Below the pieces are notes generated by a model. The model did not search any database, was not told the origin of the DNA, and saw only the letters and a program-made list of their open reading frames with translations. From a virus, in UHGV virus genome UHGV-1368455: a stretch of DNA of 64,000 nucleotides; one strand, 5' to 3'. Shown piece by piece: positions 7,151-61,907 of the stretch (its first letter is position 1; every line of letters begins with the position of its first letter). Both the position numbers and the translations under genes were made by a program.

Positions 7151-7158
7151 ATAAAGCT

Positions 7159-31800: not shown

Positions 31801-34800
31801 TAGTGAAGAAGATGCTGTTGAGTTTGTACTTCCCGATGAACACATAGAAGATAGCGCTATTGATTATGATATTAAATCTATAAAGAAAGCATATCCTGAT
31901 GCTATTAGGAAAAAAGAAATTAAATATGATACTTCTAATATAAACATAAATTATAATACTATTAGTATTGATGACGCTTATAAGATTTTTGAAAATTTAA
32001 GATGGACTGATGAAAATGGTAAACATCATTCTTTATATATGAATTTCAAAGATGATACAATAAGTCTTCAAGAAGCTATTACTTGTGCAAAAGCTATGGC
32101 GTATAGTACTATTAATGGAAATTATAGCGATACTGTTGTTAGAAATATTTGGTTACATAAATATAATAATGAACAATTAGTTAATCTTGAAAAAGCTCTT
32201 AAAGTTGGCGATGATATAGGTGCTCAAGCCGATGAATGGCCTGCTATTAGAGAAAAGGTTATTGATACTTTTAAAGAAGCTGCTAATAAACAATTTAGCC
32301 CTAAAAGAGAATCTACTGCTCGTAAACAAACTATATTTACAGCTAATAAAATAGGTTGGTCAGATACTAATAAAAATCTTGTAGGTGATTTTGTTACTAC
32401 TTATACAGCTCAAACTACTGCTCATCATCTTGACGCTGTTAAACAAGGGTCTATTCCTAATGTTAATGAATATACTTTTCATGTATATAAATTCCTTACT
32501 ACTATTGGTCTTGACCATGAAACTTCTGTAGGTTTTATTCGTCAGCCTGCTATTACTAAACTTGTTGCCAACAATAATCTTATTAATTCTGTATTCTTTA
32601 GTAGCAAAAATGATGCTGTTAAAATGACTTTAGCTGATATTGCTACAAGATTGGGTCGTAAAGCTAAAGGAAAATATGATATAACTCATAATACTTCTCT
32701 CGGAGTTATATTGAATAGTCTTAAAGAAGATGGATGGTTTGTAGAAGAGTTCAAATATCAAACAGGTATTGATATTACTAAAGTAAATAATAATAAAATT
32801 CTTAAACTTAGAATACCTCTTAATAAAGCTGATATATTTAAACGTATTAAAGATGAAGCTACTAAAACTGGAGATGTATATGAAAATGCTGTTCAAGACG
32901 TTATAGTTCTTATTCAATTTAGTCAATATAAACGTACTACTGATAAACTTAATGAGTATATACAAGCTCTCAATGCTGACAAGATAGGTGCTGCTCCAAG
33001 TATTCGAGAAACACGTCAAATGAGAGACAGAATTAATAAACTTCGTCAAGATTCAACTCTTACTATTGATGGAGAATCTATGATTAATAAAATTTATCCT
33101 GCTGATAAATATAATTCAAATGCTATTAAAGTAGATGAATCTGTATATGCTCCTATTGCTGCTGTTTATTCTATGGCTACTCTTCCAAGTATTGAAGTTG
33201 GTGGTAAAATCTTTACTATGGAAAATGAAGATTTTGCTATTGCTGAAGAAACAGTCCAACAAACTATTCATAAAAGATTAAATATCGAAGAGTATAAAGA
33301 GTATAAACGTTATGCCGTCGCCACATTATATAATACGATTAGCAAGCTATTGACGCCTTTGACGGTTGATGAACGAGGACGCATTATACCTTATTCAGAA
33401 GAGATAGTTAATGAGGACACAGAGCTAAAAACAGCTTCACCATACTGGGATAGAGAACGTTCTCGTATTGTTGGTTATGGTATTACTGATGAAGGTAATT
33501 TCAAATGTGCTAATGTTAATGCTCCTACTGCTGATGAAATTAAAGAATATCTTAAACTTACTCCTGCACAAAAAATTATATTTATACAACGTAATTTCTC
33601 TGATAATCAAGGAGTATTTAATAATATAAAAGTTACTCTTATTAATAATACTGACGTTCGTAATAAAGGTATTAGTAGACAATATCTTAATTATGATGAC
33701 CAAGTTGATAGTATTGAGGATTTGTTTAGTATGTTTGAAAATAGTTTTAGTAATCATAATCCTCTCATTAAACTTGCCGCTGTTGATTTAATTAAATACG
33801 CTTTTATAGCTGAAGGATTTAATTTTAAGTCTGGTTATATTACTAAGATAATTCCTAACGATACTCTTTACTCTGATATTAATGACGGAGGTATGGATAT
33901 TATTGAAGATATTAAAACTAAAGGCGAAGCCTTATATCATATTATTCAAAGTGAAGAATTTATTAATAATTTTATGCGCAGTCATAGCGGACTTGCTCCG
34001 CTTTTTACTTTAAGTCCAAAAGATAAAACTACTAATATATTTATATCTTGTAGTAATATTGATGGACTTGTTTCTTTCGATATGACTACTGAAAATACTC
34101 AAGCTACATGGTTGCATAGTCAGCTTATGCTTCAACGTTATATTGATGGTTATATAAGAGTTACACATCCTGTTGGAGAAAATAAAACTCCTGTTACTAC
34201 TTTATATAAAGTTCTTGGACGAAATGAAATTACTGACGAAAATGGATTTGTTAAAGGTTATAAAGACATATATCTTGTTCCTCTTAATCTACTCGATAAA
34301 TATGAAAGTTATGATATAAGTTATAATCAAAACTATAATCAATTTAATGATTATTCTTATTATGTAGACAGAGTAGATAATCTTGCTAATGAAACCGAAA
34401 GTTATCGTTCTTATAATATTAATAAATTTCAGGAATATAAGGAAAAAATGCTTACTACTGATAAAAATGATATTAATACTCGTGCTCAATATTCTAAAAT
34501 GTCAGAACAATATTTACGTGAAAGTCAACGAGCAAGAAGTAAAGCTATTGATAAATATCCTGGCAAATCTAATCCTATTGGTAAGTTTAATCCTACTACT
34601 AATAAAACTTTTAACAATCCTAATGCTTTAATGGAACTTGCTGAAAGTTCTGATAAATATTTAGCTGGTGCTGTATCTAAATTTATTAATGATATTAATC
34701 AAGCATTTATTTCTAAACTTGCAAGTGGAGATAATATTGGTATGTTTGTTGTTAATAATTCATATCAACTTAATAATCTTATACCTGCTGGCACATTTAT

Positions 34801-37800
34801 AATACAAGATTTTACTAATGAAGATGGAGATATTGTTAGATTGCAAATCGGTCATACTCCTACTAAAAATTTACTTAAAACTATTTATAATATTACTCAT
34901 GGCAAAAATGATAGTAACATAAATCTTAAATATGCTATTAAACAACTTGCAGAAACTAATACTCGACCAAATGCTGCTAATTATTTCTATATAACACAAG
35001 TTCCTCTTACTAATGAAGAAGCTGAAGAAAGATTAAATGCAGCAACCGATTTAATTGCTGATGATTCTGTCGTTGAAGACGCTGGGCTACCCCGTAGAGG
35101 GACATCTCGTGTCAATATTGATGTTGTTAGTGCTTCTGTTATGAAACAAATTCAATATGAAGCTCTTAAAAACAATAATGCTATTGCAAGACGTTTTATT
35201 CAAACTATGGAACGTCGTGGTATTAATAGAAATTATCGTAGTTCTCTTGCTGAACACCGTAAAGATATTTATCGTGCTGCCGCAAGATATTATCAATCTG
35301 CTGCAAATAGTCTTATTAATGCTCTTAATGGTTATGAAATAGCTGGACAAACACTTCGTATGGATAGTCCTGAGTTCTTTGAAGAACTTGCTAAACATGA
35401 TGAAGAATTTAATAAAGTAGCTAAAATTATTCTCGACGCTGTTACTTTTGGCAATCGTATAGCTCCTATTATGCAACTTGATATTGCCGCTGAAGATAAA
35501 GAAACTAAAGAAGGTATTCAATCTATTCAAAATAGTATTAATTCTATTAGAACTAATACAGGATTTAAGACCGCTCTTGCTAATATGTTTAATATATATT
35601 TCAAAAAATATTCTACAAATCCTGACATTAGTGATGGTATTCTTAATCTTCGTGACCAATTTGGTGATATAGATACCATCGTTGCTCTTATTTCTGACCC
35701 TGCTGAAATTAATAATAATGAAGTTCAAGTTATTCTTAAAAACATTTATAGTATGTTTAGTAAAGCAGAAATGTTTGATACTGAACGTAATATAAAAGAA
35801 TGGAAAGAACAACTTACTAAAATTGATGCTATGACTGAAAGTCTTGATATGGATAAAATTATAGATTCTGAACACGGTATGCTTCGTCAAGACTATAATG
35901 ATAAATACCTTGAAGATAAACAAAAAGTTATTGATGATTTTAATGAGGCTCGCAAATATAAAGATGAAAGTCAAGAAGCATTTACTAAATATATTAAAGC
36001 TAAATATGCTCGTGATGAATTTATGTATAAACATCAACATCAACTAATTGTTGATGATTATTATAAAGAAGATTTGGCTATGCGTAAAGAAGTTATGGAT
36101 AAAGCCAAAGATTTATATTATGAGTATATGCGTTATATTACTGAACTTTATAATTTGAATACTGGAGAAGATGAAGATAATGAAGATGTTAAGAAACGTA
36201 AAACAGAACTTATCAATCATATTACTGCAATACGTGCTGACAACGATATAACAGGAGAACTTAAACCTATTCAGCAACGTATGAAAGTTAAAGCACTTAA
36301 TGATTATATTACTAAACATAGAGAACTTGCTCATAAATATTTTAATACACAAGAATATGATGGTTTTCAAGAAGACTATAATCGTTATAATGATTATATT
36401 AAATATCATGATAAAACTCATAAACGTTTAAGTCTTGAAGAAAAACTTGATGACCCAGAATATCGTGAAGCATATAATTGGATTAAAAATAATGGTAAAC
36501 TTAGATATACTGATGAAGCCGCTGTTAAAATTGCAAACGCTTTTGATGTATTAACTAAACGTCAAACTGCTATTTCTAATAAGACTTTGCATGCTATTCG
36601 TAAAATGGAAGGTGTTATTGATGATAATGGTATTATTGATGGACGTAAGTTAACAAATGAACAAATTGCTCAACTTCGTGAAGAAGAAATGGATGAACTT
36701 GCTACTAAATATGAGAATGGAAATGGAGAAATGATGCTTATCAAAATGATTTCCGTTCGTCCTCCTATTATGAATAGTCGTCCAAAGGATGATGAAAGTA
36801 AAAAAATACTTATGGATTTACAATATAAAGATAATAAACTTAAATTTAAGATTATTCAAAATATTAACGAAATACTAATGAAAGCTGTTGACGCTGATAC
36901 AGGAGAAGTCAATATGGTTTATTTATTTAATAATAATTATGTTACTAATGAAGATAGAGAAGAACTTGCTGAACTTTATAATCAATTACGTTCTTTAAGA
37001 AGTGAATCTCTCCGTAAGTTTAAGAAGAGAAAAAACAAAGTTTATGAAGATATTATTGACAATAATGCTTATAATAAAGCTAAAATATTTTATGATACTC
37101 TTCCAAAAGGTTCTATTCAAGCCAAACAATGGCTTAATATATTTACTGAATTAGATGCAGACGGCAATCTTGTTCCTAACAGTAATTTATTTGGTTATCA
37201 TCAAGCTAAAGAAGATTTTATTGACCATGATAAAACTAATGCAAGAGATTTTATATTTGATAATATAGAGTTTGTTCCTAATGAATATTATTGGTTAGCT
37301 GCTGAAGAACATAAAGAAAAAGGTGATTATGATGAATGGTTTAGACAAAATAATGTTTATAATCCTTATACTCATAAATATGAGCCTTTGAAAATATGGA
37401 CTACAATGCAAGCTAAACCTGATAGCGAACTTGCTAAATCTATTGAATATGTGCCTACGTTTGATAATATGGAACGTAGTGTTAAAGAAGAATATATCAA
37501 TACTAATTTCAAAGAATTTAGTCCTAATTATAAGAAAGGTGATTCTAAATATGATACTAATATTAAACTTAATCTTAAAGAACAAGCACTAAAAGATTTA
37601 ATTCAACAAACGTTGAATAAATATGCTACTACTTATCAAGGACGTAAATTTGTCGGACGTGGATTTTTACCTCGTTCTCGTTCTGTACAAATTAATCCTC
37701 GTTGGGCTGGTGGTCAATTAATGTCTTTATTTGGTGTTAGTTGGCATAGTGGTGCCGATAGTGATAGTTTCCATGATATTGTTGACTATTCTCATGATAG

Positions 37801-39976
37801 AGAAGCTGATATGAAAATGCTTTCTCTTCTTAAAGGTAAAGGTACTAAAGATTATATTCCGTCGCCTAAACGAATGGAATATAAAACAGCTGAAGAATAT
37901 GAAAAAGCTGTTGAAGAAGTTCGTAAACAAAATCATGAGATTTATCTTCAAAATCTTGCTATTGATAATAAAAATCTTAATCGTAATTGGCGTAAAGTAA
38001 TGGAAGACTTTGTTTATAACGCTACTATATTTAATTCTCGTCAAGCTGCCAAACCTTATCTTTATCTTCTTCTTGAAGACTTAAAGAATAATGATGCTTA
38101 TAAGATTAAAGGTATGTGGAATAAACGTCTTCTTAAAGATGTTGATACATCTACAAAAGATGACCCTCAATATCAAAGACAAGCGCAAACTCGTACTCAG
38201 CAACTTATTCATAATCTTGCTCGTCGTTTATTATTTGACCAATATCATGAAAATAGTGTTGCTCGTTCTGTTGCCAATCTTCTGCAAAATATTACTTCTG
38301 CTAAATATATGGTATTTAACTTATATGGCGGTGTTGCTAATATTACCACAGGTAAAGTTAATATTCGTGCTGAAGAATTTGCTAATGAATATTTTGGTTT
38401 TAGAGAACTTAAAACTGCCGAAAAAGAATATCTTACTAATATATGTGCGTTCTTAGCTTCTCGTTTTACTGATAAATCTCCTACTCTTGCAGCTGCATTT
38501 ATTAAACAATTCCATGTTGTAGACTTTGACCAAGTTCTACAATTTGCTGCTAATGAAGGAGAACTAAATACTAAGGTTAGAGAATTTAGAGATTTTCTTT
38601 ATAGTTTCCAATCTATGGGCGAGCACTATATGCAAAATACTGTTTTATTTGCTATGCTTAAATCTAATAGACTTTATACTGATACTAATGGAGTTATGCG
38701 TATTGGTGATTTCAAAGATTTTACTTGGGATGTTGAAAAAACTGCTATGCGTAATATTCTTGCTGAATATCCAGAAGTTGCTACTGATTATGAAATGTAT
38801 ATAAAAGGAATACGTGAATACGATATTGAAACTAAACTTGATATTTCAACAGGTCGTAAAAATCTTAATCGTAATTTCCTTTATTCTATTAGAGATAATA
38901 CTAATCAATATAGTCAAGCTTTATATAAAGAAATTGCTACTAAATATCATACAGAAGTTAAGAAACTTATGAAAGAAGCAAAACAACAATTCATGACTAA
39001 TCCAACTGTTGAAAGTCTTTATGAATTTGTTGATGGACGCGCTGAACTTAAAAAAGAATATAAAGATAAAGTTCCTACTGATAATAAAATTGGAGATTTA
39101 GAAACTCTTATTGCTCAGTTCAAAGAAAAAGTTAAATCTGTTAATAAAAAGATACACGGTGTATATGATAAAGATGGAGCTGCTCAAATAGAAAGTAAAT
39201 GGTGGGGTAGTCTTGTAGCACAATATCATAAACATCTTCCTACTGGTATTTGGAAACGTTGGCGTCGTAAAGGTTATTATTCTGAATTTAGAGGTTCTCG
39301 CGAACGTGGTTCTTATCAAACTTTTATTGATTTTATGGGAACTGAATTTACTAATTTTAATAAACGTATTAAACAACAATCTGCTGATACTAATATAGCA
39401 CTTGCATCTATTCAAGTTACATTTAAGTCTATTATTAACACTCTTACTAATTTACAATTTAATTATAATAATCTTGCTCCTTGGGAGAAAGCTAATATGC
39501 GTCGTAATCTTGGAGATTTAAGCGGTATTCTTATTGCTTGTCTTGTAGTTGCCGCTTTATATGGATTATCTGATGATGACGATATTAAGGATGATAAATT
39601 TAAGGCTTCTCTACTTTATCTTGCAGATAGACTTTATAGTGATAGCTCAATGTATAGTCCTGTTGGTCTTGTTAGCGAATATAAGACAGCTTGGAGCAGT
39701 CCTATTGCTTCTGCTAATGGTCCAAGTGATCTTATGAAAGCTATGACTATTATTCCTCAATATCTATTTGACCCAGATTATGATAAAGAATATACTACTG
39801 GACTTTATAAAGGACAAGATAAACTTATGGTTCTTCTTAGACGTAACCTTCCTGGTATTCGTCCTTGGGATAGAATACAAATGATTACTCGTAATAATAA
39901 TTATTATAAGATTGATAGTTCACAAATAGGAATTAGTATTGCTAAAGATTTTGGTGAACTTCTTGCTGGTGAGTAA
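25808..39976 (+). CDS. giant virion protein (4722 aa), candidate virion-packaged multisubunit-like RNA polymerase (crAss-like gp66-type)
   Basis: 14.2-kb uninterrupted ORF. GSDFDVDS at nt 30803..30817 resembles the double-psi beta-barrel (DPBB) catalytic loop NADFDGD. Start uncertain: GTG at 25808, first ATG at 25910. Confidence 0.75.
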   Translation: MGLITAFTIHNIFSKQQIQTIVHYSDESYNGDSNMNCTINDLNLSFDKDNRLRTTIGRVAGWSVDKAYVLASFLQDESFKKYLSKMLTDKDIIGGAAIDLKNITDNDYININQNKLGSLLNVYYIDHYHSVNNSKTNKALGRLNGFSSGTAKTVGLNYTADRIIDKYYDEFGKAKPKKSQEIIAEVINDIEHELYKQVNLFANNVISSDKYSKAARDYAQKFIDIIKRIEENNNKIKETTIFANANKNQLRQYNGKKVTEEEKSIIKRLTDIDKQYKEELASLGKDNARAALDRYVIAQNLVNLYANNVDGALNKRLRNFANLVAQMKGDTNGWFFQVMNTKRMTSIVKEFNNIGDIEEYIEQQDENNDNIIDKYNGQDVDQTTKSWEDSLYKSFNSAISGKMRIILSRVPKLSSPFNPTAEIQSLDTENELGVKTYMDAQFITVQMFSFGDFSDIESMVRSIERRANTVEELYGIGMLVNQMKQDKVFANYMYANFAKPLVNKTMCVISDLTKESGITFNYSNANAFYSTKMAFDMMNKLRASYNTQYDINDYKTIQALGNKLRNPKLPIEFDDTEIIYNTLLKYFPNIKREVYDNFLRGIKDDKRNALINFTQNLIAIINGAGALKTKINTAIEESNRKYNNAKKKFNQDYNAYLEAGDTQAVKQMKYPTYQGVDYTEYDLDPNTLKAVIRLAENLSDYSASKARLNTANAEGNTASDVTKNCYITRFFEQINAGTEEDSNAGLHALLDYITQGTENGKENQYSNNPLFFGVKDENGRVIIPGMFTRVGDIFNINKNAKEILNYSLFDGTKNTQSGNGSGYASMSKLDFFVTQYIAYANSVGDINENGINKKIGNLDSSVYAMRIGSDAPKIYMIRAPRYNYRQLQYAFYNHLMDELNMYVNSLNKIFRKNNAGEYKLITTTNGLYGRAFFDEGAADNLRKDGKKDMSKAFVEENNGRLQLAGKMFKFLRLFDANGHSAATDIETVLSLYGGVDANATSLFIKDGRTKLKLNKDYINSENGFIKELTDEQGTRFVLDLGATQKKALLNIVDNWMKDVLQESTARTSDFVQAMEHNNIQYTQPMIQSFILNALNMNMNYDDMFEGDFKFYNNARDFLKRTKESQAGGDGCSGYRLTELPRRGITENTYFGEPEIINVKTAKNTEAGTYIVPTYDNGSIVNKPMTARNGFRAVTIHNTIKPSDVAMDLQETLEEEFISQGMSKEDAHARSVKIAGGYFAQTKVNDAQSFITLEEFIRRKYADGTIGNYQDLIAQLLDPNVKAEDIDVDAVNARIQVQKNFYFDKQFDPYTGTFVPRQIKNAEFVLIPKLLPQDSDLIKVYEWMRANDIGQLNTAETDKAAKKNIFTIWSEDTGEFIDPRNNKKFREDYIQNYYYQYLYKQQDVPQHMINEENKLGAQIQKKIIDNVSTASKQVQDWANEYQEALVENIREDYIRFLDRMGWEYDSESGHIVNSEYATKDANGNPLPAEVIKSNRETLNLTDFYTRAREEAARLGMDSNFIEYLIPNEFGVTTMPNLMNNVASKLESVAQALFNRTVTRQTMPGWHAAQVTDVGYSRRLLKFDPKTGVMEVYLPRWSNLLPKPKNAEEEKKLLEQIAKEGLDIHLGYRIPTEGKQSISVLRVVGFTNDALGSTIIVPEEWVTQTGSDFDVDSIYGISYEIYAKKDKKGNITVYKIPCEEDKVDNDNLYINYVNSRLEDKVKRSDIGEEIESRIKELRDSLKAQIGDKLNSNNAAFVAVDTQRNELFNKLPAWARGIIVNEQTKAKRVAKKDKVSVDLRGEYQVINKLFDEQLTKRNLDDATADIIKQYMDYQTSLINIMNEQDGITTFDKDEYISSKKDIIATAVENARKEQVKLCESKANEVGLMSYDDFIKQPLIKRLSRKARNNYILDRMINIMNDRSSREEQYGRSQFEGIAGEETSANDIINKISGQSKRSYSPYNPLDQLDYFEDAMGGARLKALSVNWDTFVSKCNRTHPILSEEDAVEFVLPDEHIEDSAIDYDIKSIKKAYPDAIRKKEIKYDTSNININYNTISIDDAYKIFENLRWTDENGKHHSLYMNFKDDTISLQEAITCAKAMAYSTINGNYSDTVVRNIWLHKYNNEQLVNLEKALKVGDDIGAQADEWPAIREKVIDTFKEAANKQFSPKRESTARKQTIFTANKIGWSDTNKNLVGDFVTTYTAQTTAHHLDAVKQGSIPNVNEYTFHVYKFLTTIGLDHETSVGFIRQPAITKLVANNNLINSVFFSSKNDAVKMTLADIATRLGRKAKGKYDITHNTSLGVILNSLKEDGWFVEEFKYQTGIDITKVNNNKILKLRIPLNKADIFKRIKDEATKTGDVYENAVQDVIVLIQFSQYKRTTDKLNEYIQALNADKIGAAPSIRETRQMRDRINKLRQDSTLTIDGESMINKIYPADKYNSNAIKVDESVYAPIAAVYSMATLPSIEVGGKIFTMENEDFAIAEETVQQTIHKRLNIEEYKEYKRYAVATLYNTISKLLTPLTVDERGRIIPYSEEIVNEDTELKTASPYWDRERSRIVGYGITDEGNFKCANVNAPTADEIKEYLKLTPAQKIIFIQRNFSDNQGVFNNIKVTLINNTDVRNKGISRQYLNYDDQVDSIEDLFSMFENSFSNHNPLIKLAAVDLIKYAFIAEGFNFKSGYITKIIPNDTLYSDINDGGMDIIEDIKTKGEALYHIIQSEEFINNFMRSHSGLAPLFTLSPKDKTTNIFISCSNIDGLVSFDMTTENTQATWLHSQLMLQRYIDGYIRVTHPVGENKTPVTTLYKVLGRNEITDENGFVKGYKDIYLVPLNLLDKYESYDISYNQNYNQFNDYSYYVDRVDNLANETESYRSYNINKFQEYKEKMLTTDKNDINTRAQYSKMSEQYLRESQRARSKAIDKYPGKSNPIGKFNPTTNKTFNNPNALMELAESSDKYLAGAVSKFINDINQAFISKLASGDNIGMFVVNNSYQLNNLIPAGTFIIQDFTNEDGDIVRLQIGHTPTKNLLKTIYNITHGKNDSNINLKYAIKQLAETNTRPNAANYFYITQVPLTNEEAEERLNAATDLIADDSVVEDAGLPRRGTSRVNIDVVSASVMKQIQYEALKNNNAIARRFIQTMERRGINRNYRSSLAEHRKDIYRAAARYYQSAANSLINALNGYEIAGQTLRMDSPEFFEELAKHDEEFNKVAKIILDAVTFGNRIAPIMQLDIAAEDKETKEGIQSIQNSINSIRTNTGFKTALANMFNIYFKKYSTNPDISDGILNLRDQFGDIDTIVALISDPAEINNNEVQVILKNIYSMFSKAEMFDTERNIKEWKEQLTKIDAMTESLDMDKIIDSEHGMLRQDYNDKYLEDKQKVIDDFNEARKYKDESQEAFTKYIKAKYARDEFMYKHQHQLIVDDYYKEDLAMRKEVMDKAKDLYYEYMRYITELYNLNTGEDEDNEDVKKRKTELINHITAIRADNDITGELKPIQQRMKVKALNDYITKHRELAHKYFNTQEYDGFQEDYNRYNDYIKYHDKTHKRLSLEEKLDDPEYREAYNWIKNNGKLRYTDEAAVKIANAFDVLTKRQTAISNKTLHAIRKMEGVIDDNGIIDGRKLTNEQIAQLREEEMDELATKYENGNGEMMLIKMISVRPPIMNSRPKDDESKKILMDLQYKDNKLKFKIIQNINEILMKAVDADTGEVNMVYLFNNNYVTNEDREELAELYNQLRSLRSESLRKFKKRKNKVYEDIIDNNAYNKAKIFYDTLPKGSIQAKQWLNIFTELDADGNLVPNSNLFGYHQAKEDFIDHDKTNARDFIFDNIEFVPNEYYWLAAEEHKEKGDYDEWFRQNNVYNPYTHKYEPLKIWTTMQAKPDSELAKSIEYVPTFDNMERSVKEEYINTNFKEFSPNYKKGDSKYDTNIKLNLKEQALKDLIQQTLNKYATTYQGRKFVGRGFLPRSRSVQINPRWAGGQLMSLFGVSWHSGADSDSFHDIVDYSHDREADMKMLSLLKGKGTKDYIPSPKRMEYKTAEEYEKAVEEVRKQNHEIYLQNLAIDNKNLNRNWRKVMEDFVYNATIFNSRQAAKPYLYLLLEDLKNNDAYKIKGMWNKRLLKDVDTSTKDDPQYQRQAQTRTQQLIHNLARRLLFDQYHENSVARSVANLLQNITSAKYMVFNLYGGVANITTGKVNIRAEEFANEYFGFRELKTAEKEYLTNICAFLASRFTDKSPTLAAAFIKQFHVVDFDQVLQFAANEGELNTKVREFRDFLYSFQSMGEHYMQNTVLFAMLKSNRLYTDTNGVMRIGDFKDFTWDVEKTAMRNILAEYPEVATDYEMYIKGIREYDIETKLDISTGRKNLNRNFLYSIRDNTNQYSQALYKEIATKYHTEVKKLMKEAKQQFMTNPTVESLYEFVDGRAELKKEYKDKVPTDNKIGDLETLIAQFKEKVKSVNKKIHGVYDKDGAAQIESKWWGSLVAQYHKHLPTGIWKRWRRKGYYSEFRGSRERGSYQTFIDFMGTEFTNFNKRIKQQSADTNIALASIQVTFKSIINTLTNLQFNYNNLAPWEKANMRRNLGDLSGILIACLVVAALYGLSDDDDIKDDKFKASLLYLADRLYSDSSMYSPVGLVSEYKTAWSSPIASANGPSDLMKAMTIIPQYLFDPDYDKEYTTGLYKGQDKLMVLLRRNLPGIRPWDRIQMITRNNNYYKIDSSQIGISIAKDFGELLAGE
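28776..28794 (-). repeat. motif copy 7, variant (TCTCTCTACGGGGGAGTTG)
   Basis: Inside giant CDS, translated LSLYGGVD. Confidence 0.8.
29219..29240 (+). repeat. motif copy 8 (GAACTCCCCCGTAGAGGGATAA)
   Basis: Inside giant CDS, translated ELPRRGIT. Confidence 0.9.
35087..35104 (+). repeat. motif copy 9 (CTACCCCGTAGAGGGACA)
   Basis: Inside giant CDS, translated GLPRRGTS. Confidence 0.85.
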
Positions 39977-40002: not shown

Positions 40003-40050
40003 AAAAAAAGGCTCGCGAAGCGGTTATTAAACCACTCCACGAGCCTTTTC
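40003..40050. terminator. bidirectional intrinsic terminator between convergent gene blocks (AAAGGCTCG ... CGAGCCTTT stem flanked by A-run and T-run)
   Basis: 9-bp stem with ~24-nt loop; AAAAAAA on left and TTTTC on right, so it serves both strands. Confidence 0.65.
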
Positions 40051-40077: not shown

Positions 40078-40545
40078 TTAATCATTGTGTTTAGGATGTG
40101 CCACAGGTTTAGCAACCTTATGCGGACGGCTGCTATTTTTAGCTGTTATTAGCTTTGTATTACATTTATTTATTTGAGCTGATAACTTATCCAACTGAAT
40201 AACTATATCGCTTGTATGCTCATAATTTGAGTGCAACTTATCTTTAATTTCATTATGATTATTAGCAATATATTCATTAATATTTTTAATTAATTGAAGA
40301 GTAGCATTTATAGTAGTATCTGCACCTTTAATATAATTATGAATTATATTTATAACACTATTTAATACACAAATATTGCTATCAATCTGTTCACAATTAC
40401 TTTTAATAGTATCAATATCTTTATCTATTTCTTTATAAGTATCATAAACATTATTATTTAATTCGATTATCTTTTTCTCTAATCGCATTAACGTAATAGC
40501 CATTATTATAACTATTACTAATATTGTTCCTATTAAAAAATACAT
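40078..40545 (-). CDS. membrane-anchored coiled-coil protein (hypothetical)
   Basis: ORF-track start at 40551 is TTG; ATG at 40545. N-terminal TM (YFLIGTILVIVIIMAITL) then helical region. Confidence 0.5.
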   Translation of the reverse strand: MYFLIGTILVIVIIMAITLMRLEKKIIELNNNVYDTYKEIDKDIDTIKSNCEQIDSNICVLNSVINIIHNYIKGADTTINATLQLIKNINEYIANNHNEIKDKLHSNYEHTSDIVIQLDKLSAQINKCNTKLITAKNSSRPHKVAKPVAHPKHND

Positions 40546-40570
40546 AATCAATCACAATTAAAGTGCATCC

Positions 40571-40594
40571 ATCCCTATACGGGGGAGTTCGACG
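40571..40594 (-). repeat. motif copy 10, reverse orientation, intergenic (ATCCCTATACGGGGGAGTTCGACG)
   Basis: Left arm of inverted pair in gap 40546..40704. Confidence 0.85.
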
Positions 40595-40655
40595 ATTAAT
40601 ACCGACAATAACAATAGTATTAATCGCCGTAATAGCACTAGACGTTATTGACGTT

Positions 40656-40678
40656 GGGCTACCCCGTAGAGGGATAAA
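40656..40678 (+). repeat. motif copy 11, intergenic (GGGCTACCCCGTAGAGGGATAAA)
   Basis: Right arm of inverted pair; 61-bp interior. Confidence 0.9.
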
Positions 40679-40704
40679 TAAAGTCAATTTGTTATTTATA
40701 GCTT

Positions 40705-41076
40705 TTAATCAATATTTGCGCCTTTGGGATTACGAGCTTTATCAATACATTCATCATCATAATGAATAATATCAAGCCCATAACTTGCGGCAGCCCTATA
40801 TTCTACAAGACAGCCGCGAGCAAATTCCCAACCTTTACAGAAATAAACTGCATCACAAGTAGACATTTTAGCAAGAGACTGAGCAAGAAAATAAAGAGGA
40901 ATATTTTGAACTCCAATATTTCTAAGACTCTCAGGCTTATCGAAATCATCACCAAAATAAGTATTAACTATTTCATATCCTTTTTCTTTAAGGACTTTAA
41001 CAGCTTTAGCTTTTTCAGCTAAAATTTCTTCTTCTGTTTTACCAGCCATAGGCTGACTAATCATTGCTTTCTTCAT
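40705..41076 (-). CDS. nucleoside 2-deoxyribosyltransferase-like (DUF4406-like) protein
   Basis: Motif CKGWEFARGCLVEYRAAASYGLDII fits the family pattern W..S.G...E...A..G. Confidence 0.35.
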   Translation of the reverse strand: MKKAMISQPMAGKTEEEILAEKAKAVKVLKEKGYEIVNTYFGDDFDKPESLRNIGVQNIPLYFLAQSLAKMSTCDAVYFCKGWEFARGCLVEYRAAASYGLDIIHYDDECIDKARNPKGANID

Positions 41077-41109: not shown

Positions 41110-41559
41110 TTACTTAGATAATCCATTTTTAGCCCATTGAAGAACAAAACCAAGATAACTCCAAAGATTACTTTTAATTGTTTCAAGAGCATACTTTTCT
41201 CCAAGTTCTTGAGAATAATTCTTAGGGTCTACACAAGCAGAAGCATTAACCATATCGAAACCTGTAACAGTAGTAGCAAGAACAACAGTAGTTTTAGGTC
41301 CTAATGTAGAAGTAACGTGAGATTTAAGAAAATTATCTACGTCAGCTTCATCAATCTTAGAACCATCATTGTTTTCATTAAGCTTAAAATAAGCTTTATC
41401 AGCAACATCTTTAGGACACCAAGATTTATATCCATCAGGATAAGTTACTTCGTATCCTTCATCGTTACCTTCATGACCATTAGTTTTATAACCTTTAAAC
41501 TGAGCTGCTCCTGCAAGCATAGGAGTAAGTTCAACCATTTTAATTCCAATCGCTTTCAT
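41110..41559 (-). CDS. hypothetical protein
   Basis: 149 aa. Confidence 0.5.
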   Translation of the reverse strand: MKAIGIKMVELTPMLAGAAQFKGYKTNGHEGNDEGYEVTYPDGYKSWCPKDVADKAYFKLNENNDGSKIDEADVDNFLKSHVTSTLGPKTTVVLATTVTGFDMVNASACVDPKNYSQELGEKYALETIKSNLWSYLGFVLQWAKNGLSK

Positions 41560-43183: not shown

Positions 43184-43915
43184 TTAAAACTTTTTGAATT
43201 TACGAATATCAATATTAAGTTTGTTTATTTCTTCACTATAATTAATAGGAACATGATAAAATTCTTTAAGAACTTTAAGTTTAGGTTCACGATGGTCAAC
43301 AGTAAGTATTATTTCAATGCCTTTGCCATAAATAGCAGATACAGGAATACTAACTGTACTTTGAATAGTATAACAATGTTTATCAACTATTTCTGGACGA
43401 ATACGACATATATCAATATGTTCACCAGTAATTTTACCTCCTTTATTAATGAATATAGTAGGACAAAGATTAAATTCTTTTTGAGTAATTTGCGTTTGAG
43501 AATTATAATTATAATCATATTGTTTTCTAACAATAGCTTTATAAGCACTACGATTATAAATTATATATTTTCCATCTTTATCGACAGTATTAGACTTATA
43601 AATATTATAATATCGTAAATTATTAGCAATACCGTTAAGATTAAACTCGCTAAATTCATCATCATTAAGAGTAAGAGGACTTAAAATACCTTTATCCCAT
43701 ATAGTATTAATAATATTAAGAACAGAATCAACTTCTTCTTGATTTTGAGGTTCAATAGAATCAATAACTTTAGCTATTCTAATAGCATTTTGACAATCAT
43801 AGAAAGTTTTAGTTCTTTCTTCATTATTAGAAAGAGAAGCTAACTTAATATTAGCTTCTCTTTTAAGTAAAGTAGTTAAACTACCATCTTCTCTTCCAAT
43901 AACAAAATTTTTCAT
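43184..43915 (-). CDS. hypothetical protein, paralogue of 45365..46180 (shared PLTL[NK]DDEF segment)
   Basis: 243 aa; ...SPLTLNDDEFSEF... versus ...APLTLKDDEFHFIY... in the 271-aa protein. Confidence 0.5.
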   Translation of the reverse strand: MKNFVIGREDGSLTTLLKREANIKLASLSNNEERTKTFYDCQNAIRIAKVIDSIEPQNQEEVDSVLNIINTIWDKGILSPLTLNDDEFSEFNLNGIANNLRYYNIYKSNTVDKDGKYIIYNRSAYKAIVRKQYDYNYNSQTQITQKEFNLCPTIFINKGGKITGEHIDICRIRPEIVDKHCYTIQSTVSIPVSAIYGKGIEIILTVDHREPKLKVLKEFYHVPINYSEEINKLNIDIRKFKKF

Positions 43916-45364: not shown

Positions 45365-46180
45365 TTAATTATGTTTATTTTTAAGTTCTTCTTCTGCTTC
45401 ATTCACATCATTAGGAATAATATTAAAAGCGCTTTTACCAACAATACTTTCTATTTTAATAAGATTGAGTTTATACTTTTGGCTAAGTTTAATAAATTCA
45501 GCACTATCATCTCGTGTAAAAGTAATAAATCCATTAATTCCGTCATCAGAACCTATTTCATAACAATCAAGTATAATAGTATTCTTTGGAGCATATTTAT
45601 GTTCATCAATATTTACTTGTTTTATTTGACAGCAACTTAAATAATCTCCTGTAAAACGAAGATTAGCATCAACAAGCCAAGTACCTCCAGACCAAGTAGT
45701 ATTATTACCTTGTATAAAATTAGTATCATTCCAACCTTTATGATATTTAATACGTTTACTAAACGAATCAATATCCTCTATAATAACAGTACCATCTTCA
45801 TTAATACGTTTGAATATACTACTTTTTCTCTTGTTTTGATAATTTTTTCTTCCTTTATCATCTTTATAAATAAAATGAAATTCATCATCCTTAAGAGTAA
45901 GAGGGGCAATAGGTTCAAACTTACAAAGTTTTTGAACAAGATTAATTTCAAAAGGAGCACTAAAACCTCTATTACCATGACTACTGAAAACAGCAAGAGC
46001 TTCCATTACTTGTTCATACATCCAACTATTTGGATTATCTTTTTGTCCAGGTTTATAACCAGCAAGACGGAGTTCATAATCTCCATGTCTACAAATATTA
46101 CTATGAGCGATAATATATTGAAGAGCTTTCTTATTAATAAGACATTTACGCATCTTCTTATCTTTTCTTCTACTTACCAT
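45365..46180 (-). CDS. hypothetical protein, paralogue of 43184..43915
   Basis: 271 aa; shared PLTLKDDEF block. Confidence 0.5.
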   Translation of the reverse strand: MVSRRKDKKMRKCLINKKALQYIIAHSNICRHGDYELRLAGYKPGQKDNPNSWMYEQVMEALAVFSSHGNRGFSAPFEINLVQKLCKFEPIAPLTLKDDEFHFIYKDDKGRKNYQNKRKSSIFKRINEDGTVIIEDIDSFSKRIKYHKGWNDTNFIQGNNTTWSGGTWLVDANLRFTGDYLSCCQIKQVNIDEHKYAPKNTIILDCYEIGSDDGINGFITFTRDDSAEFIKLSQKYKLNLIKIESIVGKSAFNIIPNDVNEAEEELKNKHN

Positions 46181-46381: not shown

Positions 46382-47234
46382 AACTTAAAGCGTTAAGTTC
46401 AGTTTTAATCATGCCAGCAATAATCTTAGCGTTAGGATGAGGATTACCAGTAGTACCATAATAACGAAGGTCAAGAATAGCACGCCATTCATCTATAGAA
46501 TAAGTATATACAACTTCTGTTGCAGTATCAAGAGGAAGTACACCACGAGCATCTTGACGAAGCATACCATTATCTACAAGAAGTTTATATTTATTAAAAG
46601 AATCATTACAACTATCTCTAAAAATAGATGCTTTTTTATGAGAATCGCACCATTCTTCAAAAATAGGTTCATTATTTAAATAATTTACTTCTTCGTCAGT
46701 CATCCAATAAGGACGACAAATAGTACCATCTTCATAAACATATCTTGTAGACTGTTCAGCAATATTGTTAGGACTTACTCTATTTAGTTCTCTACTTGTA
46801 CTAATTTGAGTTGTAATCTTAAAAGTATATCGCATCATATTCCATGCCATAAAACAAGCATTAGCGAATACTTCATCTTCAAGTTGATAATCAAGAATAG
46901 TATAAATTAAACATCGATGGTCAAGATTCCAATTACCATTAGTAACAACATAATAATAATTAGAATCAATCTTAATATCGATTCCTATTATGTTAGCTTC
47001 ATTTCGAATAGCTATATAATAATATCTAACCCAATCTGGAACTTTAATTCTTGGAACAATAAAATAATATGTAGCATGACGAAACATACTCCAATGTTTG
47101 TTTTTAAGAAGATTATTATAAGTAACTTCATCATTGCCAGTTTCTTTTTTATAACAAACTCTTGCACAACGGACAATATGTTTAGCTATATCATTTTGTT
47201 CCCAATATTCAACGTTTGGTTTTATTATTTTCAT
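46371..47234 (-). CDS. divergent ThyX-like (flavin-dependent thymidylate synthase family) protein
   Basis: N-terminus ARVCYKK...HWSMFRHATYYFIV resembles ThyX aaRvSysk...HgSplEHasftFei. The RHRxxS catalytic motif is not seen. ORF-track start at 47243 is TTG; ATG at 47234. Confidence 0.3.
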   Translation of the reverse strand: MKIIKPNVEYWEQNDIAKHIVRCARVCYKKETGNDEVTYNNLLKNKHWSMFRHATYYFIVPRIKVPDWVRYYYIAIRNEANIIGIDIKIDSNYYYVVTNGNWNLDHRCLIYTILDYQLEDEVFANACFMAWNMMRYTFKITTQISTSRELNRVSPNNIAEQSTRYVYEDGTICRPYWMTDEEVNYLNNEPIFEEWCDSHKKASIFRDSCNDSFNKYKLLVDNGMLRQDARGVLPLDTATEVVYTYSIDEWRAILDLRYYGTTGNPHPNAKIIAGMIKTELNALSYDI

Positions 47235-47982
47235 ATCTTGCAATTATATTTTGATAAACGTCCAAAACTTTATAAAATAAATTAAATAAAGTAGTATTAT
47301 TAGTAATAGTATATTCGCAATCAATATCAATTTGTTCAGATATATGTATGGAATTGTCATCGTTGTGATTATTTTTTTCACGAGTGACCATAATAACTCC
47401 CCCGTAGAGAGGATGTTGTTGTATGGTTTTAGCTTCATTCGTAAATCTAACATCTGGAATAAGACAAATACCATACAAACGATTAATATTGTCAACTTTA
47501 TTCATAGTAGCTCGTATCCAAATGTCGTCACCAAGATATTTTCTACATATATCAGTTCCAAAAAATTGTAATATAGTTCTAATTTTTATAACACGAAGTT
47601 TTTTAGTATTTTCTAATTGATAACTAAAATATTCAGGAGAATTAACAAGAGAACTATATTCAATAATCTTATAAACTTCTTGATGATGAATTACATCTTT
47701 ACAATCATAAAATTTGCAATTATCAATACAAAAGAAAGAATTATCTTTATAGTATTCATCATCAAGATATTCTCTTGGTATATTATAAATAGCAGATACA
47801 CAATCTCTAAGAGCGTCGGCAAAATGAACAGATTTACGTTTAGCTCTATCTTTATTAGAAACTCTATTAGCAATCCATTCTTGATAATTAGCTTTAGTAA
47901 CTCCAACAGTGTGTATATAAGCAATCATATTAGCAATGGTATCTTTGCCAGATTGTTTTTTACCACATATTCCAATAATCAT
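47209..47982 (-). CDS. P-loop dNMP kinase-like protein (T4 gp1-like)
   Basis: Walker A GICGKKQSGKDTIANMI matches the T4 dNMP kinase SGVKRSGKDT. Carries motif copy encoding HPLYGGVIM. Confidence 0.5.
   Translation of the reverse strand: MIIGICGKKQSGKDTIANMIAYIHTVGVTKANYQEWIANRVSNKDRAKRKSVHFADALRDCVSAIYNIPREYLDDEYYKDNSFFCIDNCKFYDCKDVIHHQEVYKIIEYSSLVNSPEYFSYQLENTKKLRVIKIRTILQFFGTDICRKYLGDDIWIRATMNKVDNINRLYGICLIPDVRFTNEAKTIQQHPLYGGVIMVTREKNNHNDDNSIHISEQIDIDCEYTITNNTTLFNLFYKVLDVYQNIIARYENNKTKR
47395..47414 (+). repeat. motif copy 12, variant (AACTCCCCCGTAGAGAGGAT)
   Basis: Inside minus-strand dNMP kinase-like gene, read as HPLYGGVIM. Confidence 0.85.
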
Positions 47983-48522: not shown

Positions 48523-48870
48523 CTATGTAATAATATAAACATCATAAGTATTAGCACTTTCAAGATATTCAACATTAACATTGCCACGAGTTTTACATTC
48601 ATTTTTAATATAACTATCTATTTCTCCATGAGTTCTAAGATGTAGACGACCATATTCATCCACTTTACATTTACGACAATGCTCATCAAACTCAATAGAA
48701 CTAAATAGAAAAAAGTATTCTCGATTTAATGTAATACTATTATATCTTGCAGCTTCAATATAGTATTTATAATCAGTACGAGTATTAGGAATAACAAACT
48801 CTCCTCGTTTATTATAATGTGGAAGAGTTTTAACAGTTTTAGGATTAATTACTTCATATTGATAAATCAT
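48523..48870 (-). CDS. hypothetical protein (115 aa)
   Basis: 4-nt overlap with ligase gene. Confidence 0.45.
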   Translation of the reverse strand: MIYQYEVINPKTVKTLPHYNKRGEFVIPNTRTDYKYYIEAARYNSITLNREYFFLFSSIEFDEHCRKCKVDEYGRLHLRTHGEIDSYIKNECKTRGNVNVEYLESANTYDVYIIT

Positions 48871-50081
48871 ACAAATCTTGTAGTTTTAATATGCCATGGG
48901 AGTTGATTAACTCCACTTCTTTCGCCATACTCTACAAATACTTTCTTGCCAATATAATGATTCTTTGCTTTAAGTATAGATTTTTGATAAGATTGAGTAC
49001 CACCAATATGTATTTCAAAAGTAGCATCATTAATATCATTTCTACATACAAGAAGAGGAATATCTGGACGTTTAATACCTTCGGGTTTAATATCAATTAC
49101 CTCAAATATACCATCAGTAGATTTTTTATACTTAATCATTATATTAGCAGAACGTTTACCAAAAGCATATTCGGCATCTGGATTACGAAGAATAAGACCT
49201 TCAAATCCACAATTAATATTATTATTACGAGCAATTAATGCTTCAGTAGGAGTAGAAACTTCAACATGAGGAAGAACAACTAATCTTTCAGTATTAGCTA
49301 AATGTTCTTCTTTATTAACAAAGGGTTTAACAAACCAACTCAATTTAGCTTCAAGTATTTCAGTACGATAATATTGTAGTATATCTTCAACAGCTAAATC
49401 ATAACACCAAAATTGAATAAATTTATTTTCTTTACAATAAGGGTCTTTAATAAAATGATTCAGCTGATTAACAGTATAACCGGGAATATATAATTCGCCA
49501 TCAAGAACTATATTTTCAGAAGCCATACGAGCAAGAAAATCTTTTGGCATAATTTCGAGAAGATAATCTTCAAGATAAGTAAGACTATTCCAAAATGTTC
49601 CTTCACGAGATTGAAAACGAAGTCCAATAGGCTTAAATAAACTACTTCCAATAAGATGAGCACTAATAAAACATCTAAGACCATTAATTTTATATTGTCC
49701 TATATAAGAACTACAACGGTCAAAGACTTTATCATCATAAACTTTAGCAAGCATAGCAAGTAAAGTATCATTAGCTCCAGCACGATTATAAGGCAGATAT
49801 TTATCAAGATAAGATAACAATTCTTCCTCTACGGGGTAGTTCGTATTATCTTTAATATCAGCAAGAGTACGATAACCAGTTTTAATCTTTGCTTTTATAC
49901 GTGAGCTAATTTCATCTTCAACTTTACGTCGAGTGGCAACTACTTCATCAAGCATAGTTTTACCTATAATACCATGACGAATATGTATAAAATGGTCATC
50001 TCGTTTAACAGCTTCCCATACACATATTTGTCCATAATTATTACGACGATAAAGAGCAGTTAAATAATTAAACGGATACAT
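48867..50081 (-). CDS. ATP-dependent ligase-like nucleotidyltransferase (motif I KINGLR, unusual KxNG)
   Basis: YKINGLRCF fits KxDGxR of DNA ligases/capping enzymes with D replaced by N. Size (404 aa) and position in replication block fit a ligase. Carries motif copy (NYPVEEELL). Confidence 0.45.
   Translation of the reverse strand: MYPFNYLTALYRRNNYGQICVWEAVKRDDHFIHIRHGIIGKTMLDEVVATRRKVEDEISSRIKAKIKTGYRTLADIKDNTNYPVEEELLSYLDKYLPYNRAGANDTLLAMLAKVYDDKVFDRCSSYIGQYKINGLRCFISAHLIGSSLFKPIGLRFQSREGTFWNSLTYLEDYLLEIMPKDFLARMASENIVLDGELYIPGYTVNQLNHFIKDPYCKENKFIQFWCYDLAVEDILQYYRTEILEAKLSWFVKPFVNKEEHLANTERLVVLPHVEVSTPTEALIARNNNINCGFEGLILRNPDAEYAFGKRSANIMIKYKKSTDGIFEVIDIKPEGIKRPDIPLLVCRNDINDATFEIHIGGTQSYQKSILKAKNHYIGKKVFVEYGERSGVNQLPWHIKTTRFV
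49823..49843 (-). repeat. motif copy 13, variant (CTTCCTCTACGGGGTAGTTCG)
   Basis: Inside minus-strand ligase-like gene, read as NYPVEEE. Confidence 0.75.
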
Positions 50082-50681: not shown

Positions 50682-51174
50682 GTTTAAGTCTATGTTTACC
50701 TGTTTTATAAACTATAATACGTTTAGGTTTACCAATAAGACAATGACAATAAGCAAACCAAAGAATTGCATCCCATGTTTGAAACATTTTAGGTTTTCTA
50801 TCAATAGTAGTAGCAATACCAGTTTCATAATCAAAATTAGAATAAATCCAATTACCACGTTCATCAACAAGATTGAATTTTTCAATAATATCTAAATCGT
50901 CATCACTATCCAAATCTATTTCTCCATACATATAAATATCTTTTTGATTTATGATAGTACCATCTTTTCTTTCATAACGAGTAACACCAAAATATTTAGA
51001 CGATTTATCTATCCTATTTTCTTCTTCTTCGGTAATTGCTTCCATAACAACAGTAAAAGCGACTTTATTATCATTAGAACGGCAAAGAGTTATTGTTCCC
51101 GTCCGTATCCCTAACAGGTTTATTGTCTTCTCTTTTACTTTGTAATTCATTCGTTTTAATATATTTGATAGCAT
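50656..51174 (-). CDS. hypothetical protein (172 aa; start uncertain, alternative ATG at 51150)
   Basis: Overlaps the 3' end of the primase ORF by ~77-100 nt in another frame. Confidence 0.4.
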   Translation of the reverse strand: MLSNILKRMNYKVKEKTINLLGIRTGTITLCRSNDNKVAFTVVMEAITEEEENRIDKSSKYFGVTRYERKDGTIINQKDIYMYGEIDLDSDDDLDIIEKFNLVDERGNWIYSNFDYETGIATTIDRKPKMFQTWDAILWFAYCHCLIGKPKRIIVYKTGKHRLKHDDIKDKL

Positions 51175-52300: not shown

Positions 52301-52306
52301 CGGTAC

Positions 52307-52354
52307 AAATAAAAAAATAGGGAGCAACCGCATCCGAAGATACAGCCACTCCCT
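52307..52354 (-). terminator. intrinsic terminator/attenuator after SSB-like gene (GGGAG...CTCCC outer stem, inner 5-bp stem with UUCG tetraloop, then UAUUUUUUUAUUUG)
   Basis: Read on the minus strand of 52307..52354; U-run ends 6 nt before primase ATG. Confidence 0.5.
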
Positions 52355-52374
52355 TAATTTAAGCACTAACAATA

Positions 52375-61644: not shown

Positions 61645-61907
61645 AATTTTAATTGTTTAATTGTTATTTATAAATATAATCCAAAGTATAATTTGTAGTA
61701 GTAATGCAATAATAAATATAATTATACTATCTTTATTATAATGATTATCCATAAATAAATAATATTTAATTATTAATATTCGATATAACAAGCGTAAGCT
61801 GTATAGTAGTATAAGTCATCAGCTATCATATATAAATACAATATAAAGCTAATAACAGCTTAAATATCGAATGTGTTGGTGCAGTCCAGTATCGGACAAA
61901 TATAAAA

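Follow-up and report, generated by a model that had tools for sequence, protein, structure and literature searches.

The window analyzed here is a stretch of 64,000 nucleotides (nt) from the virus genome UHGV-1368455, a crAss-like phage of the family Intestiviridae with about 70% nucleotide identity to parts of p-crAssphage relatives. Between two minus-strand genes of the window lies a composite element (40571–40678) in which a left arm, ATCCCTATACGGGGGAGTT at 40571 (+), faces an inverted copy that runs from 40678 (−) across a 61-bp interior. Very likely, the composite is neither a miniature inverted-repeat transposable element (MITE) nor a stand-alone RNA gene, but a doublet of a cis-element that is under selection and occurs genome-wide. 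The two copies form a convergent (head-to-head) pair and would probably serve as strand-specific sites for a phage-encoded DNA-metabolism factor. An earlier, sequence-only reading of the window gave the sequence and coordinates of the inverted pair and its interior exactly; what it overlooked is that the arms are copies of a motif that is genome-wide and family-wide and stands mostly single inside genes.

A search of the window for CCCTMTACGGGG with up to two mismatches identified 18 matches where 0.52 were expected, and none of 100 shuffled sequences reached this number. Eight copies are on the plus strand and ten on the minus strand. When aligned, they give the consensus (A/T)T-CCCTCTACGGGG-(G/T)AGTT, which is asymmetric and informative from position −1 to +16, with a core of 12 nt and 16–24 informative positions in all. 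Fourteen of the 18 copies are within open reading frames (ORFs), seven in the sense and seven in the antisense orientation, and they are read in four of the six frames (NPSTGE, SLYGGV, NSPVEG, LPRRG); one of the two unused frames holds a TAG stop. Since four frames are used and the two orientations are balanced, the signal resides in the DNA and is neither a peptide motif nor a signal confined to the mRNA strand. The motif is thus a nucleic-acid signal without preference for the mRNA strand. That a repeated peptide such as SLYGGV or LPRRG was selected as protein might be argued from the translation of most copies, but this explanation has next to no probability: the motif is also present in intergenic DNA, and its reading in four frames and on both strands refutes it. 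A self-hairpin of the single copy, as in the N4 virion RNA polymerase (RNAP) promoter, was likewise dropped. Its stability ranged from −0.4 to −5.2 kcal/mol, was no better than that of shuffles in p-crAssphage and crAss002, and was not conserved across the lineage-specific dialects described below. Because the fold of one copy is not reproduced from dialect to dialect, the motif is read as a sequence and not as a hairpin.

The gene order of the window is that of the family. Up to 39976 the plus strand is occupied by genes for structural and tail proteins and by an RNAP-like ORF of 4,722 aa; beyond this lies a minus-strand replication and nucleotide module encoding a dUTPase, a DUF932 protein, a Gam-like protein, ThyX, a dNMP kinase, a ligase, a primase, a family B DNA polymerase (PolB) and a RecD-like helicase. 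The composite is located in this module, in the gap between the minus-strand ORFs 40078–40551 and 40705–41076, and stops approximately 20 nt ahead of the start of the former. The gap had been recognized before, with a size of 159 bp; it measures 153 nt. The 68-aa plus-strand ORF at 40563–40769, earlier described as a spurious reading of the repeats, does exist and runs through both arms. The right arm belongs to a TAGCCCAACG 3′-flank subtype in common with the motif copy at 35090, to which it is 78% similar over 46 nt.

The arms pair through 13 Watson–Crick pairs (6 + 7) interrupted by a single A/C mismatch, and in minus-strand RNA the outer helix lengthens to 18 pairs once G–U pairs are counted. 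Folding of the minus-strand transcript, which had been suggested as a check on the element, gave a minimum free energy of −47 kcal/mol compared to −27.6 ± 3.3 kcal/mol for shuffled sequences (z = −5.9), with none of 200 shuffles as stable. The fold of the composite as DNA is similarly strong (z = −6.0). A GC stem of about 12 bp closing a 60-nt loop had been proposed; the stem is borne out, whereas the loop contains a 14-bp inner hairpin formed by the interior's own inverted repeat, GATTAATAC/GTATTAATC. A processing or termination structure had also been put forward. The strong fold leaves a local hairpin role plausible, but of the features of an intrinsic terminator only the GC-rich stem-loop is present. 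No U-tract lies 3′ of the stem, which is followed by GGAUGCACUUUAAUUGUG, and a terminator consensus scan of 40550–40700 gave no terminator-like match; the composite is therefore not a canonical intrinsic terminator. An Rfam scan of the whole window produced no match at the composite, the sole match being a tRNA at 62135–62205. The suggestion of a MITE-like unit was not supported. Terminal inverted repeats are present, but the flanks (GTGCATCC before the unit and ATAAAGTC after it) contain no direct repeat that could represent a target-site duplication. The window contains no other copy of the whole unit, the arms alone recurring and the interior being unique. In addition, the position of the pair recurs in 89 of 122 related loci while its interior is not conserved.

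Across the Intestiviridae, the motif retains an invariant core, CCTYYAYGGGG, with lineage-specific flanks and about 30 copies per genome. The dialect of the prototypical p-crAssphage (BK010471) is ccaTCCTCYACGGGGRGT with 32 copies, that of cr3_1 (Diorhovirus) is gtgtTCCTYTACGGGGGARC, also with 32 copies, and that of the cultured crAss002 (Churivirinae) is cTCCTTTAYGGGGGAA with about 30. The cultured ‘Rudgehvirus jaberico’ has 13 copies of TCCTYTACRGGGG in its first 50 kb. Shuffled genomes yield about one copy or fewer. In IMG/VR contigs with only about 70% identity to the window, the exact 16-mer recurs, with as many as about 15 occurrences per contig. In four full genomes, 72–81% of the sites are in ORFs, with sense and antisense orientations about equal (46 to 42, pooled). 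The motif was not found in the first 50 kb of crAss001 (Steigviridae), where an excess of the k-mer CTCCAGAAGGAG was considered as an analogue and rejected since it looks like coding bias. A search of 185,579 species genomes for the 16-mer identified no multi-copy bacterial genome among the 120 loci listed, which were all single hits, mostly in high-GC genomes. The dialect shift is concerted within each lineage, all copies of one genome drifting together.

Many individual sites have been retained over long distances. Seven of the 14 coding sites in the window are within 60 nt of a p-crAssphage site and have the same orientation to the gene, although the proteins that hold these orthologous sites are merely 24–64% identical. 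The PolB copy at 57867, for example, matches p-crAssphage site 10168 in gp16, at about aa 405 in both genomes. At the shared sites the 12-nt core is 0.83–0.99 identical to relatives compared to 0.43–0.65 for the flanking 40 nt on each side, and the sites fall in indel-rich, poorly conserved protein loops. The contrast between core and flanks suggests that the orthologous positions are under purifying selection. Lineage-specific sites (8183 in the window and L010 column 2216) are of equal length to their motif-less homologues, and there the core diverges more than the flanks. At site 8183 the motif is missing from the aligned position in all seven relatives, without an indel.

The arrangement of the copies along the genome was assessed in four genomes with each strand taken separately, making eight tests. 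The spacing of copies in the same orientation has a coefficient of variation of 0.26–0.50 compared to about 0.9 for random placement, with P ≤ 0.005 in seven of the eight tests; the two strands of ‘Rudgehvirus jaberico’ have values of 0.32 and 0.38. The mean spacing per strand is 4.9–7.8 kb, or roughly one copy every 5.5–7.5 kb, copies in the same orientation are almost never less than 2 kb apart, and with both strands pooled a copy occurs about every 3 kb. A minimum-distance model accounts for part of this evenness, and three of the eight tests are still too even under it (P = 0.002–0.004). Because same-strand copies are evenly spaced, orientation tends to alternate along the genome (83 of 109 neighboring copies, a pooled count that is not independent since the genomes share sites). 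Copies in opposite orientations may be as close as 26–130 bp. The four genomes contain eight pairs closer than 130 bp, all of them intergenic, where simple arithmetic from the site counts predicts about 2.4. A pooled Mann–Whitney comparison suggested that convergent neighbors may be closer (P = 0.009). A circular-shift test of coupling between the plus and minus series was not significant in any genome (P = 0.18–0.69); the two series are therefore treated as independent and not phase-locked.

The tight pair itself was followed in relatives with the gp41-like gene as the anchor for related loci of at least 5 kb. A tight inverted pair is present near this gene at the 89 loci mentioned above, 20 of them convergent (79–137 bp) and 69 divergent (32–44 bp). 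The closest relatives by anchor protein are 73% identical among viral contigs and 64% among the metagenome matches listed. In an alignment of 11 convergent pairs the arms alone are conserved, while the interiors vary in length and sequence; the first core position switches on both arms together with the dialect. In the window and in two relatives whose ORFs were listed (L185, L225), the pair is just upstream of the module's last small gene. Where the pair would be expected, a motif-less lineage has an unrelated 12-bp inverted repeat that is perfect, TATTCTCGCGCG...CGCGCGAGAATA. A hairpin at the locus therefore seems useful in itself, which makes a local role as an RNA or DNA hairpin plausible.

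The window contains a second tight pair, at 62921–63022 between ORFs 62377–62841 and 63024–63632, with which a comparison had been recommended. This pair is real and also folds strongly (z about −5.8), but its copies are arranged in the opposite way, its left copy is degenerate, and its interior is unrelated to that of the composite. The tRNA gene noted above (RF00005, 67 bits, minus strand) is about 700 nt from it.

A DNA-level signal that is asymmetric yet balanced between strands and independent of transcription direction, under purifying selection at orthologous positions, divided into dialects and evenly spaced per strand fits a recognition site for a replication, repair or processing factor. 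Neither a signal for gene expression nor a free-living mobile element matches these properties. Each copy would be a strand-specific DNA recognition site, and the phage-encoded factor, whose specificity would co-evolve with the motif, would act in a DNA transaction that is symmetric to both strands. The first choice for this transaction, put forward tentatively, is site-specific nicking or the priming of DNA synthesis; control of an exonuclease, as with Chi, would be second. The composite would then simply mark one of the few intergenic gaps, in which a site of the plus series happens to meet one of the minus series. A broader and equally speculative proposal is that the Intestiviridae have a genome-punctuation code, consisting of a lineage-specific, asymmetric signal of 16–20 nt placed about every 6 kb per strand regardless of genes and read by a co-evolving protein. 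Under such a code, tight inverted pairs such as 40571–40678 would be bidirectional initiation points. If true, this system has, to our knowledge, no described phage counterpart. Owing to their inverted arrangement, the copies would also fold into a stable hairpin within the polycistronic mRNA of the minus strand, or extrude as a DNA cruciform, with the last gene starting about 20 nt downstream. Attenuation, processing or stabilization is probably a secondary, local role of this hairpin; pairs of uptake sequences in Neisseria similarly double as terminators.

Several observations weigh against sites for a DNA-metabolism factor. A model with direct repeats that do no more than keep apart partly reproduces the evenness of spacing, and such a pattern could reflect avoidance of deletion and not a function. 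Five pairs of window copies share extended flanks, with at least 14 of 22 positions matching where 0.14 such pairs were expected, and the repeat families D8 and D14 and the inverted repeats I7 and I9 likewise have extended flank similarity. Shared flanks suggest that copies spread by copy-paste or gene conversion, as selfish repeats do, and existing copies seem at times to have served as templates for new ones. The indel-free, more diverged cores at the lineage-specific sites could be produced by selection or by short-patch conversion. The A/C mismatch between the arms of the composite is without compensation, so strict selection does not act on the pairing of these two arms. Finally, scans of the replication module against Pfam, PHROGs and NCBIfam identified no reader protein and, in particular, no nickase, HUH or relaxase protein.

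The nearest documented precedent by analogy is the nick-associated motif TACTRTGAC of the tf-like Pseudomonas phages tf and Rembedalsseter (PMC11780129). In a nanopore-sequenced phage, 13 nicks were associated with this motif, about 88% of its copies are in coding sequences, and both strands are used; members of the phage family keep the motif despite sharing little nucleotide similarity, and it has no known function (PMC11780129). Localized single-strand interruptions are also represented by the nick sites of phiKMV and T5. Like TACTRTGAC, the crAss motif is short, asymmetric, enriched, present on both strands, mostly in coding sequence and family-wide. It differs in being longer, in having dialects and in being even per strand rather than clustered at one genome end.

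A second comparison is with single-strand initiation (ssi) signals. These include G4-type priming sites and ssiA and ssiB of RSF1010 oriV, whose positions on opposite strands of the intergenic origin create a large palindrome; ssi signals are hairpin structures of 40–100 nt that occur once or twice per replicon. The tight pairs would resemble them as strand-specific sites on opposite strands that form an intergenic palindrome. Priming is attractive because of these ssiA/ssiB-like palindromic pairs and because two p-crAssphage pairs are upstream of RepL genes. In contrast to ssi signals, the crAss motif has about 30 copies, a single copy need not fold, and no RepL gene is near the pairs of the window. 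The annotations of relatives include a DnaG-family primase and single-stranded DNA-binding protein genes. The primase class was taken from this “DnaG family” annotation, as typing of the window's primase gave no match among PDB sequences, Pfam or NCBIfam.

The motif may also be compared to self-marking oligomers, namely the DNA uptake sequences (DUS) of Neisseria, the uptake signal sequences (USS) of Haemophilus and Chi. These are host-cell signals of 5–12 nt that occur in both orientations, often in ORFs, and have dialects, with intergenic inverted pairs that double as hairpins or terminators; DUS and USS are much denser and Chi is skewed with replication. The crAss motif is likewise genome-wide, in both orientations, accommodated in permissive frames and loops, divided into dialects and found as inverted pairs. 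We know of no DUS, USS or Chi that is evenly spaced per strand or that occurs in a phage. A Chi site would have 5–8 nt, be specified by the host's RecBCD or AddAB and be common to the genomes of one host, whereas the motif has 16–24 informative positions and dialects that differ between Bacteroides phages.

An RNA structure on its own is an unlikely explanation of the composite. It would make the element an intercistronic hairpin (a terminator, attenuator, processing site or stabilizer) whose arms resemble the motif by coincidence, and it draws on the strong fold, the conserved position just upstream of the module's last small gene and the unrelated inverted repeat at this spot in the motif-less lineage. 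However, the stem has no U-tract after it, neither the terminator scan nor Rfam gave a match there, and the arms are identical to a motif found 16 more times, mostly singly in ORFs and equally in sense and antisense. The uncompensated mismatch, the unconserved interior and the change from convergent to divergent pairs between lineages also weigh against it. It is also improbable that the copies are selfish, mobile micro-elements that multiply through transposition or gene conversion and persist because permissive protein loops tolerate them. Models would be repetitive extragenic palindromic (REP) sequences and their paired forms (REPINs and bacterial interspersed mosaic elements), MITEs, or Rickettsia palindromic elements (RPEs). 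REPs are palindromes located outside genes and linked to a REP-associated tyrosine transposase (RAYT), and their heads carry a GT(A/G)G tetranucleotide; RPEs are in-frame gene insertions of 100–150 bp. The crAss motif shares with these families its shortness, its occurrence singly or in inverted doublets and a consensus peculiar to the species. The selfish explanation would account for the inverted-pair architecture, the location in indel-rich loops, the subfamilies with common flanks, the concerted homogeneity within genomes, the lineage-specific gain and loss and the GT(A/G)G tetranucleotide within the core. On the other hand, the motif is 16–20 nt in length, its unit is not palindromic, it is 72–81% intragenic (14 of 18 copies in the window), and new sites arise without a change of length. 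There is no target-site duplication or copy of the whole unit, and no transposase or RAYT (Y1/HUH) was found in the scans of the window's replication module, with about 30 kb of the phage genome outside the window. Moreover, no multi-copy bacterial genome was among the 120 loci, one in two coding sites has an ortholog in another genus, with a core conserved against diverged flanks, spacing is even per strand, and the position of the pair recurs in relatives.

T7-group promoters provide the model for a further explanation, in which the phage-encoded RNA polymerase uses the copies as promoters or terminators and the antisense copies drive or stop antisense or priming transcripts. These promoters are asymmetric sequences of about 20 nt (23 bp), occur about 17 times per 40 kb with some inside upstream genes, have dialects that co-evolve with their reader, and all point in the direction of the genes. 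The motif is comparable in its asymmetry, its length of about 20 nt and its dialects, as well as in its roughly even spacing and conserved positions, and a giant RNAP is among the phage's gene products. Single-stranded templates are preferred by the virion RNAP of crAss-like phages, which has no known early promoter motif (10.1101/2020.03.07.982082); both points would suit this explanation. It is nonetheless distinctly unlikely, since one half of the copies run antisense to gene modules that are unidirectional over 40 kb (sense and antisense being equal, 7/7, in the window) and copies are deep within giant ORFs. An even smaller probability attaches to recombination linkers, by which the conserved islands would be short homologies or crossover points for module exchange between co-infecting phages. 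Islands of identity in genomes that are otherwise 60–70% identical and the RecT-type recombinase annotated in relatives would be expected of such linkers, but seven pairwise comparisons with relatives of 76–92% identity revealed no identity step at motif copies, and crossovers between inverted copies of the same genome would favor lethal inversions.

Strand-specific recognition by a phage factor, the reading preferred here, bears on viruses that are the most abundant in the human gut and whose replication and genome handling are almost unknown. About 30 copies at orthologous positions with even spacing, maintained at a cost in codon freedom, would imply a strong cis-acting requirement that is invisible to annotation pipelines. 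The motif also explains several “spurious” ORFs and repeats of a naive reading. Since it is present in p-crAssphage and in the cultured crAss002 and ‘Rudgehvirus jaberico’, direct tests are possible, and its lineage-specific dialects make it a compact lineage marker that could become a probe or an engineering target. No description of the motif was found in the literature by sequence or by topic, in a search that excluded subscription-only papers, and on this basis the signal appears to be previously unrecognized. The p-crAssphage culturing preprint mentions no such motif, and the virion-RNAP preprint describes only a different, host-type middle-promoter motif (10.1101/2020.03.07.982082). The positions of the composite, its neighboring genes and the remaining motif copies are collected in Table 1.

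Table 1. Parts and neighbors of the composite element and other motif copies in the window.
Feature	Position	Strand or arrangement	Description
Left arm, ATCCCTATACGGGGGAGTTCGACG	40571–40594	+	Core CCCTATACGGGG at 40573–40584, one mismatch to consensus; then GAGTT 3′ flank
Interior	40595–40655		61 bp; own inverted repeat GATTAATAC (40594–40602) / GTATTAATC (40617–40625)
Right arm, GGGCTACCCCGTAGAGGGATAAA	40656–40678	−	Core 40662–40673, exact CCCTCTACGGGG; repeat family D14
Downstream gene	40078–40551	−	157 aa; N-terminal hydrophobic segment, then coiled-coil-like region; last gene of module
Upstream gene	40705–41076	−	123 aa; DUF4406 / nucleoside 2-deoxyribosyltransferase-like
gp41-like gene	41110–41559	−	N4 gp49 / Sf6 gp66 family, phrog_9467
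Second tight pair	62921–63022	divergent (tail-to-tail)	Degenerate copy TTCTCTACGGGG at 62924–62935 (−); exact copy at 63004–63015 (+)
Solo copy	8183–8194	−	ORF 7743–8426, antisense, NSPVEG; lineage-specific
Solo copy	9609–9620	+	ORF 9318–10169, sense, NPSTGE; orthologous p-crAssphage site 58727
Solo copy	13720–13731	−	ORF 10169–14053, antisense
Solo copy	15343–15354	+	ORF 14749–16365, sense; orthologous p-crAssphage site 51406
Solo copy	21967–21978	+	ORF 19063–25776, sense
Solo copy	25401–25412	−	ORF 19063–25776, antisense
Solo copy	28776–28787	+	Giant RNAP-like ORF 25808–39976, sense, SLYGGV; orthologous p-crAssphage site 39092
Solo copy	29225–29236	−	Giant ORF 25808–39976, antisense, LPRRG; not in p-crAssphage
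Solo copy	35090–35101	−	Giant ORF 25808–39976, antisense, LPRRG
Solo copy	47400–47411	−	dNMP kinase gene 47209–47982, sense
Solo copy	49825–49836	+	DNA ligase gene 48867–50081, antisense; orthologous p-crAssphage site 18157
Solo copy	51469–51480	−	Primase gene 51074–52372, sense; orthologous p-crAssphage site 16625
Solo copy	56249–56260	+	ORF 55357–56733, antisense; orthologous p-crAssphage site 11765 in SNF2-like gp17
Solo copy	57867–57878	−	Family B DNA polymerase gene 56736–59090, sense, about aa 405

The motif copies have some further features in their surroundings. A subfamily formed by the copies at 9609, 21967, 63004 and 15343 has a second block, roughly ATCTACAACGAC, located about 22–26 nt 3′ of the core start (9630–9645, 21990–22003, 63025–63038 and 15365–15378, respectively), and in p-crAssphage TCTAC is repeated 11 nt downstream (TCTACGGGGGGTCTAC). 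Together, these hint at a bipartite or iterated recognition unit. Positions 1–8182 of the window contain no motif copy, compared to a mean spacing of about 3.2 kb elsewhere, and the terminase-portal-capsid region of crAss002, cr3_1 and p-crAssphage has runs of copies in the gene-sense orientation only.

GCGNAGC heptamers, which correspond in sequence to a mini-hairpin of very high stability, d(GCGAAGC), occur within 50 nt 3′ of a motif copy in nine of ten cases in p-crAssphage, six of ten in crAss002 and two of ten in cr3_1, where about 0.1 would be expected; none of the five heptamers in the window is near a copy. p-crAssphage has three motif pairs closer than 130 bp, at 28077(−)/28172(+), 95745(−)/95864(+) and 22901(−)/22927(+). 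Two of the three are 546 and 274 nt upstream of the RepL (PF05732) genes gp43 and gp88, and both of these have tandem GCGNA pentamers (GAGCGTAGCGAAGCGGAGCG) and GCGNAGC mini-hairpin repeats on their 3′ sides. The RepL-side pairs may mark replication origins. Adjacency to RepL was rejected as a general rule, since it is true of these two p-crAssphage pairs and the ORFs flanking the pairs of the window, including 40078–40551, are not RepL.

Three metagenomic contigs (L193, L256 and L282), of which two are almost as long as a genome, terminate precisely within the tight divergent pair. Contig ends fall at motif copies in three of 54 cases, which is about chance level, and all three are at the palindromic tight pair; they are probably assembly breaks at the palindrome, with a physical DNA end as a less probable alternative. 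In the motif-less relative L246, an array of five copies of CCACAGTAGAAGCATGGGGTAATGCCACAGTG at 754–1100, spaced 48–168 nt apart and mostly by multiples of 48, is upstream of the gp41-like gene.

Near the composite, a 60-nt segment in the 3′ part of the 157-aa gene (40137–40196) is 82% complementary, as an inverted similarity, to 61805–61864, an apparently non-coding segment of the early region 21.6 kb away. Both would be transcribed from the minus strand, and the RNAs could pair. The 100-nt gap where the plus- and minus-strand gene modules converge contains AAAAAAAGGCTCGCGAAGCGGTT at 40003–40030 (GCGAAGC at 40015–40021), a candidate bidirectional terminator with no motif copy adjoining it. 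Further along the minus-strand module, ORF 43184–43915 has a weak, sub-threshold match to the Thoeris inhibitor domain Tad3. The 271-aa ORF at 45365–46180 (−) matches the same domain (PF25185, E = 7.5e-29) and, from this similarity, is a possible anti-defense gene in a crAss-like phage.

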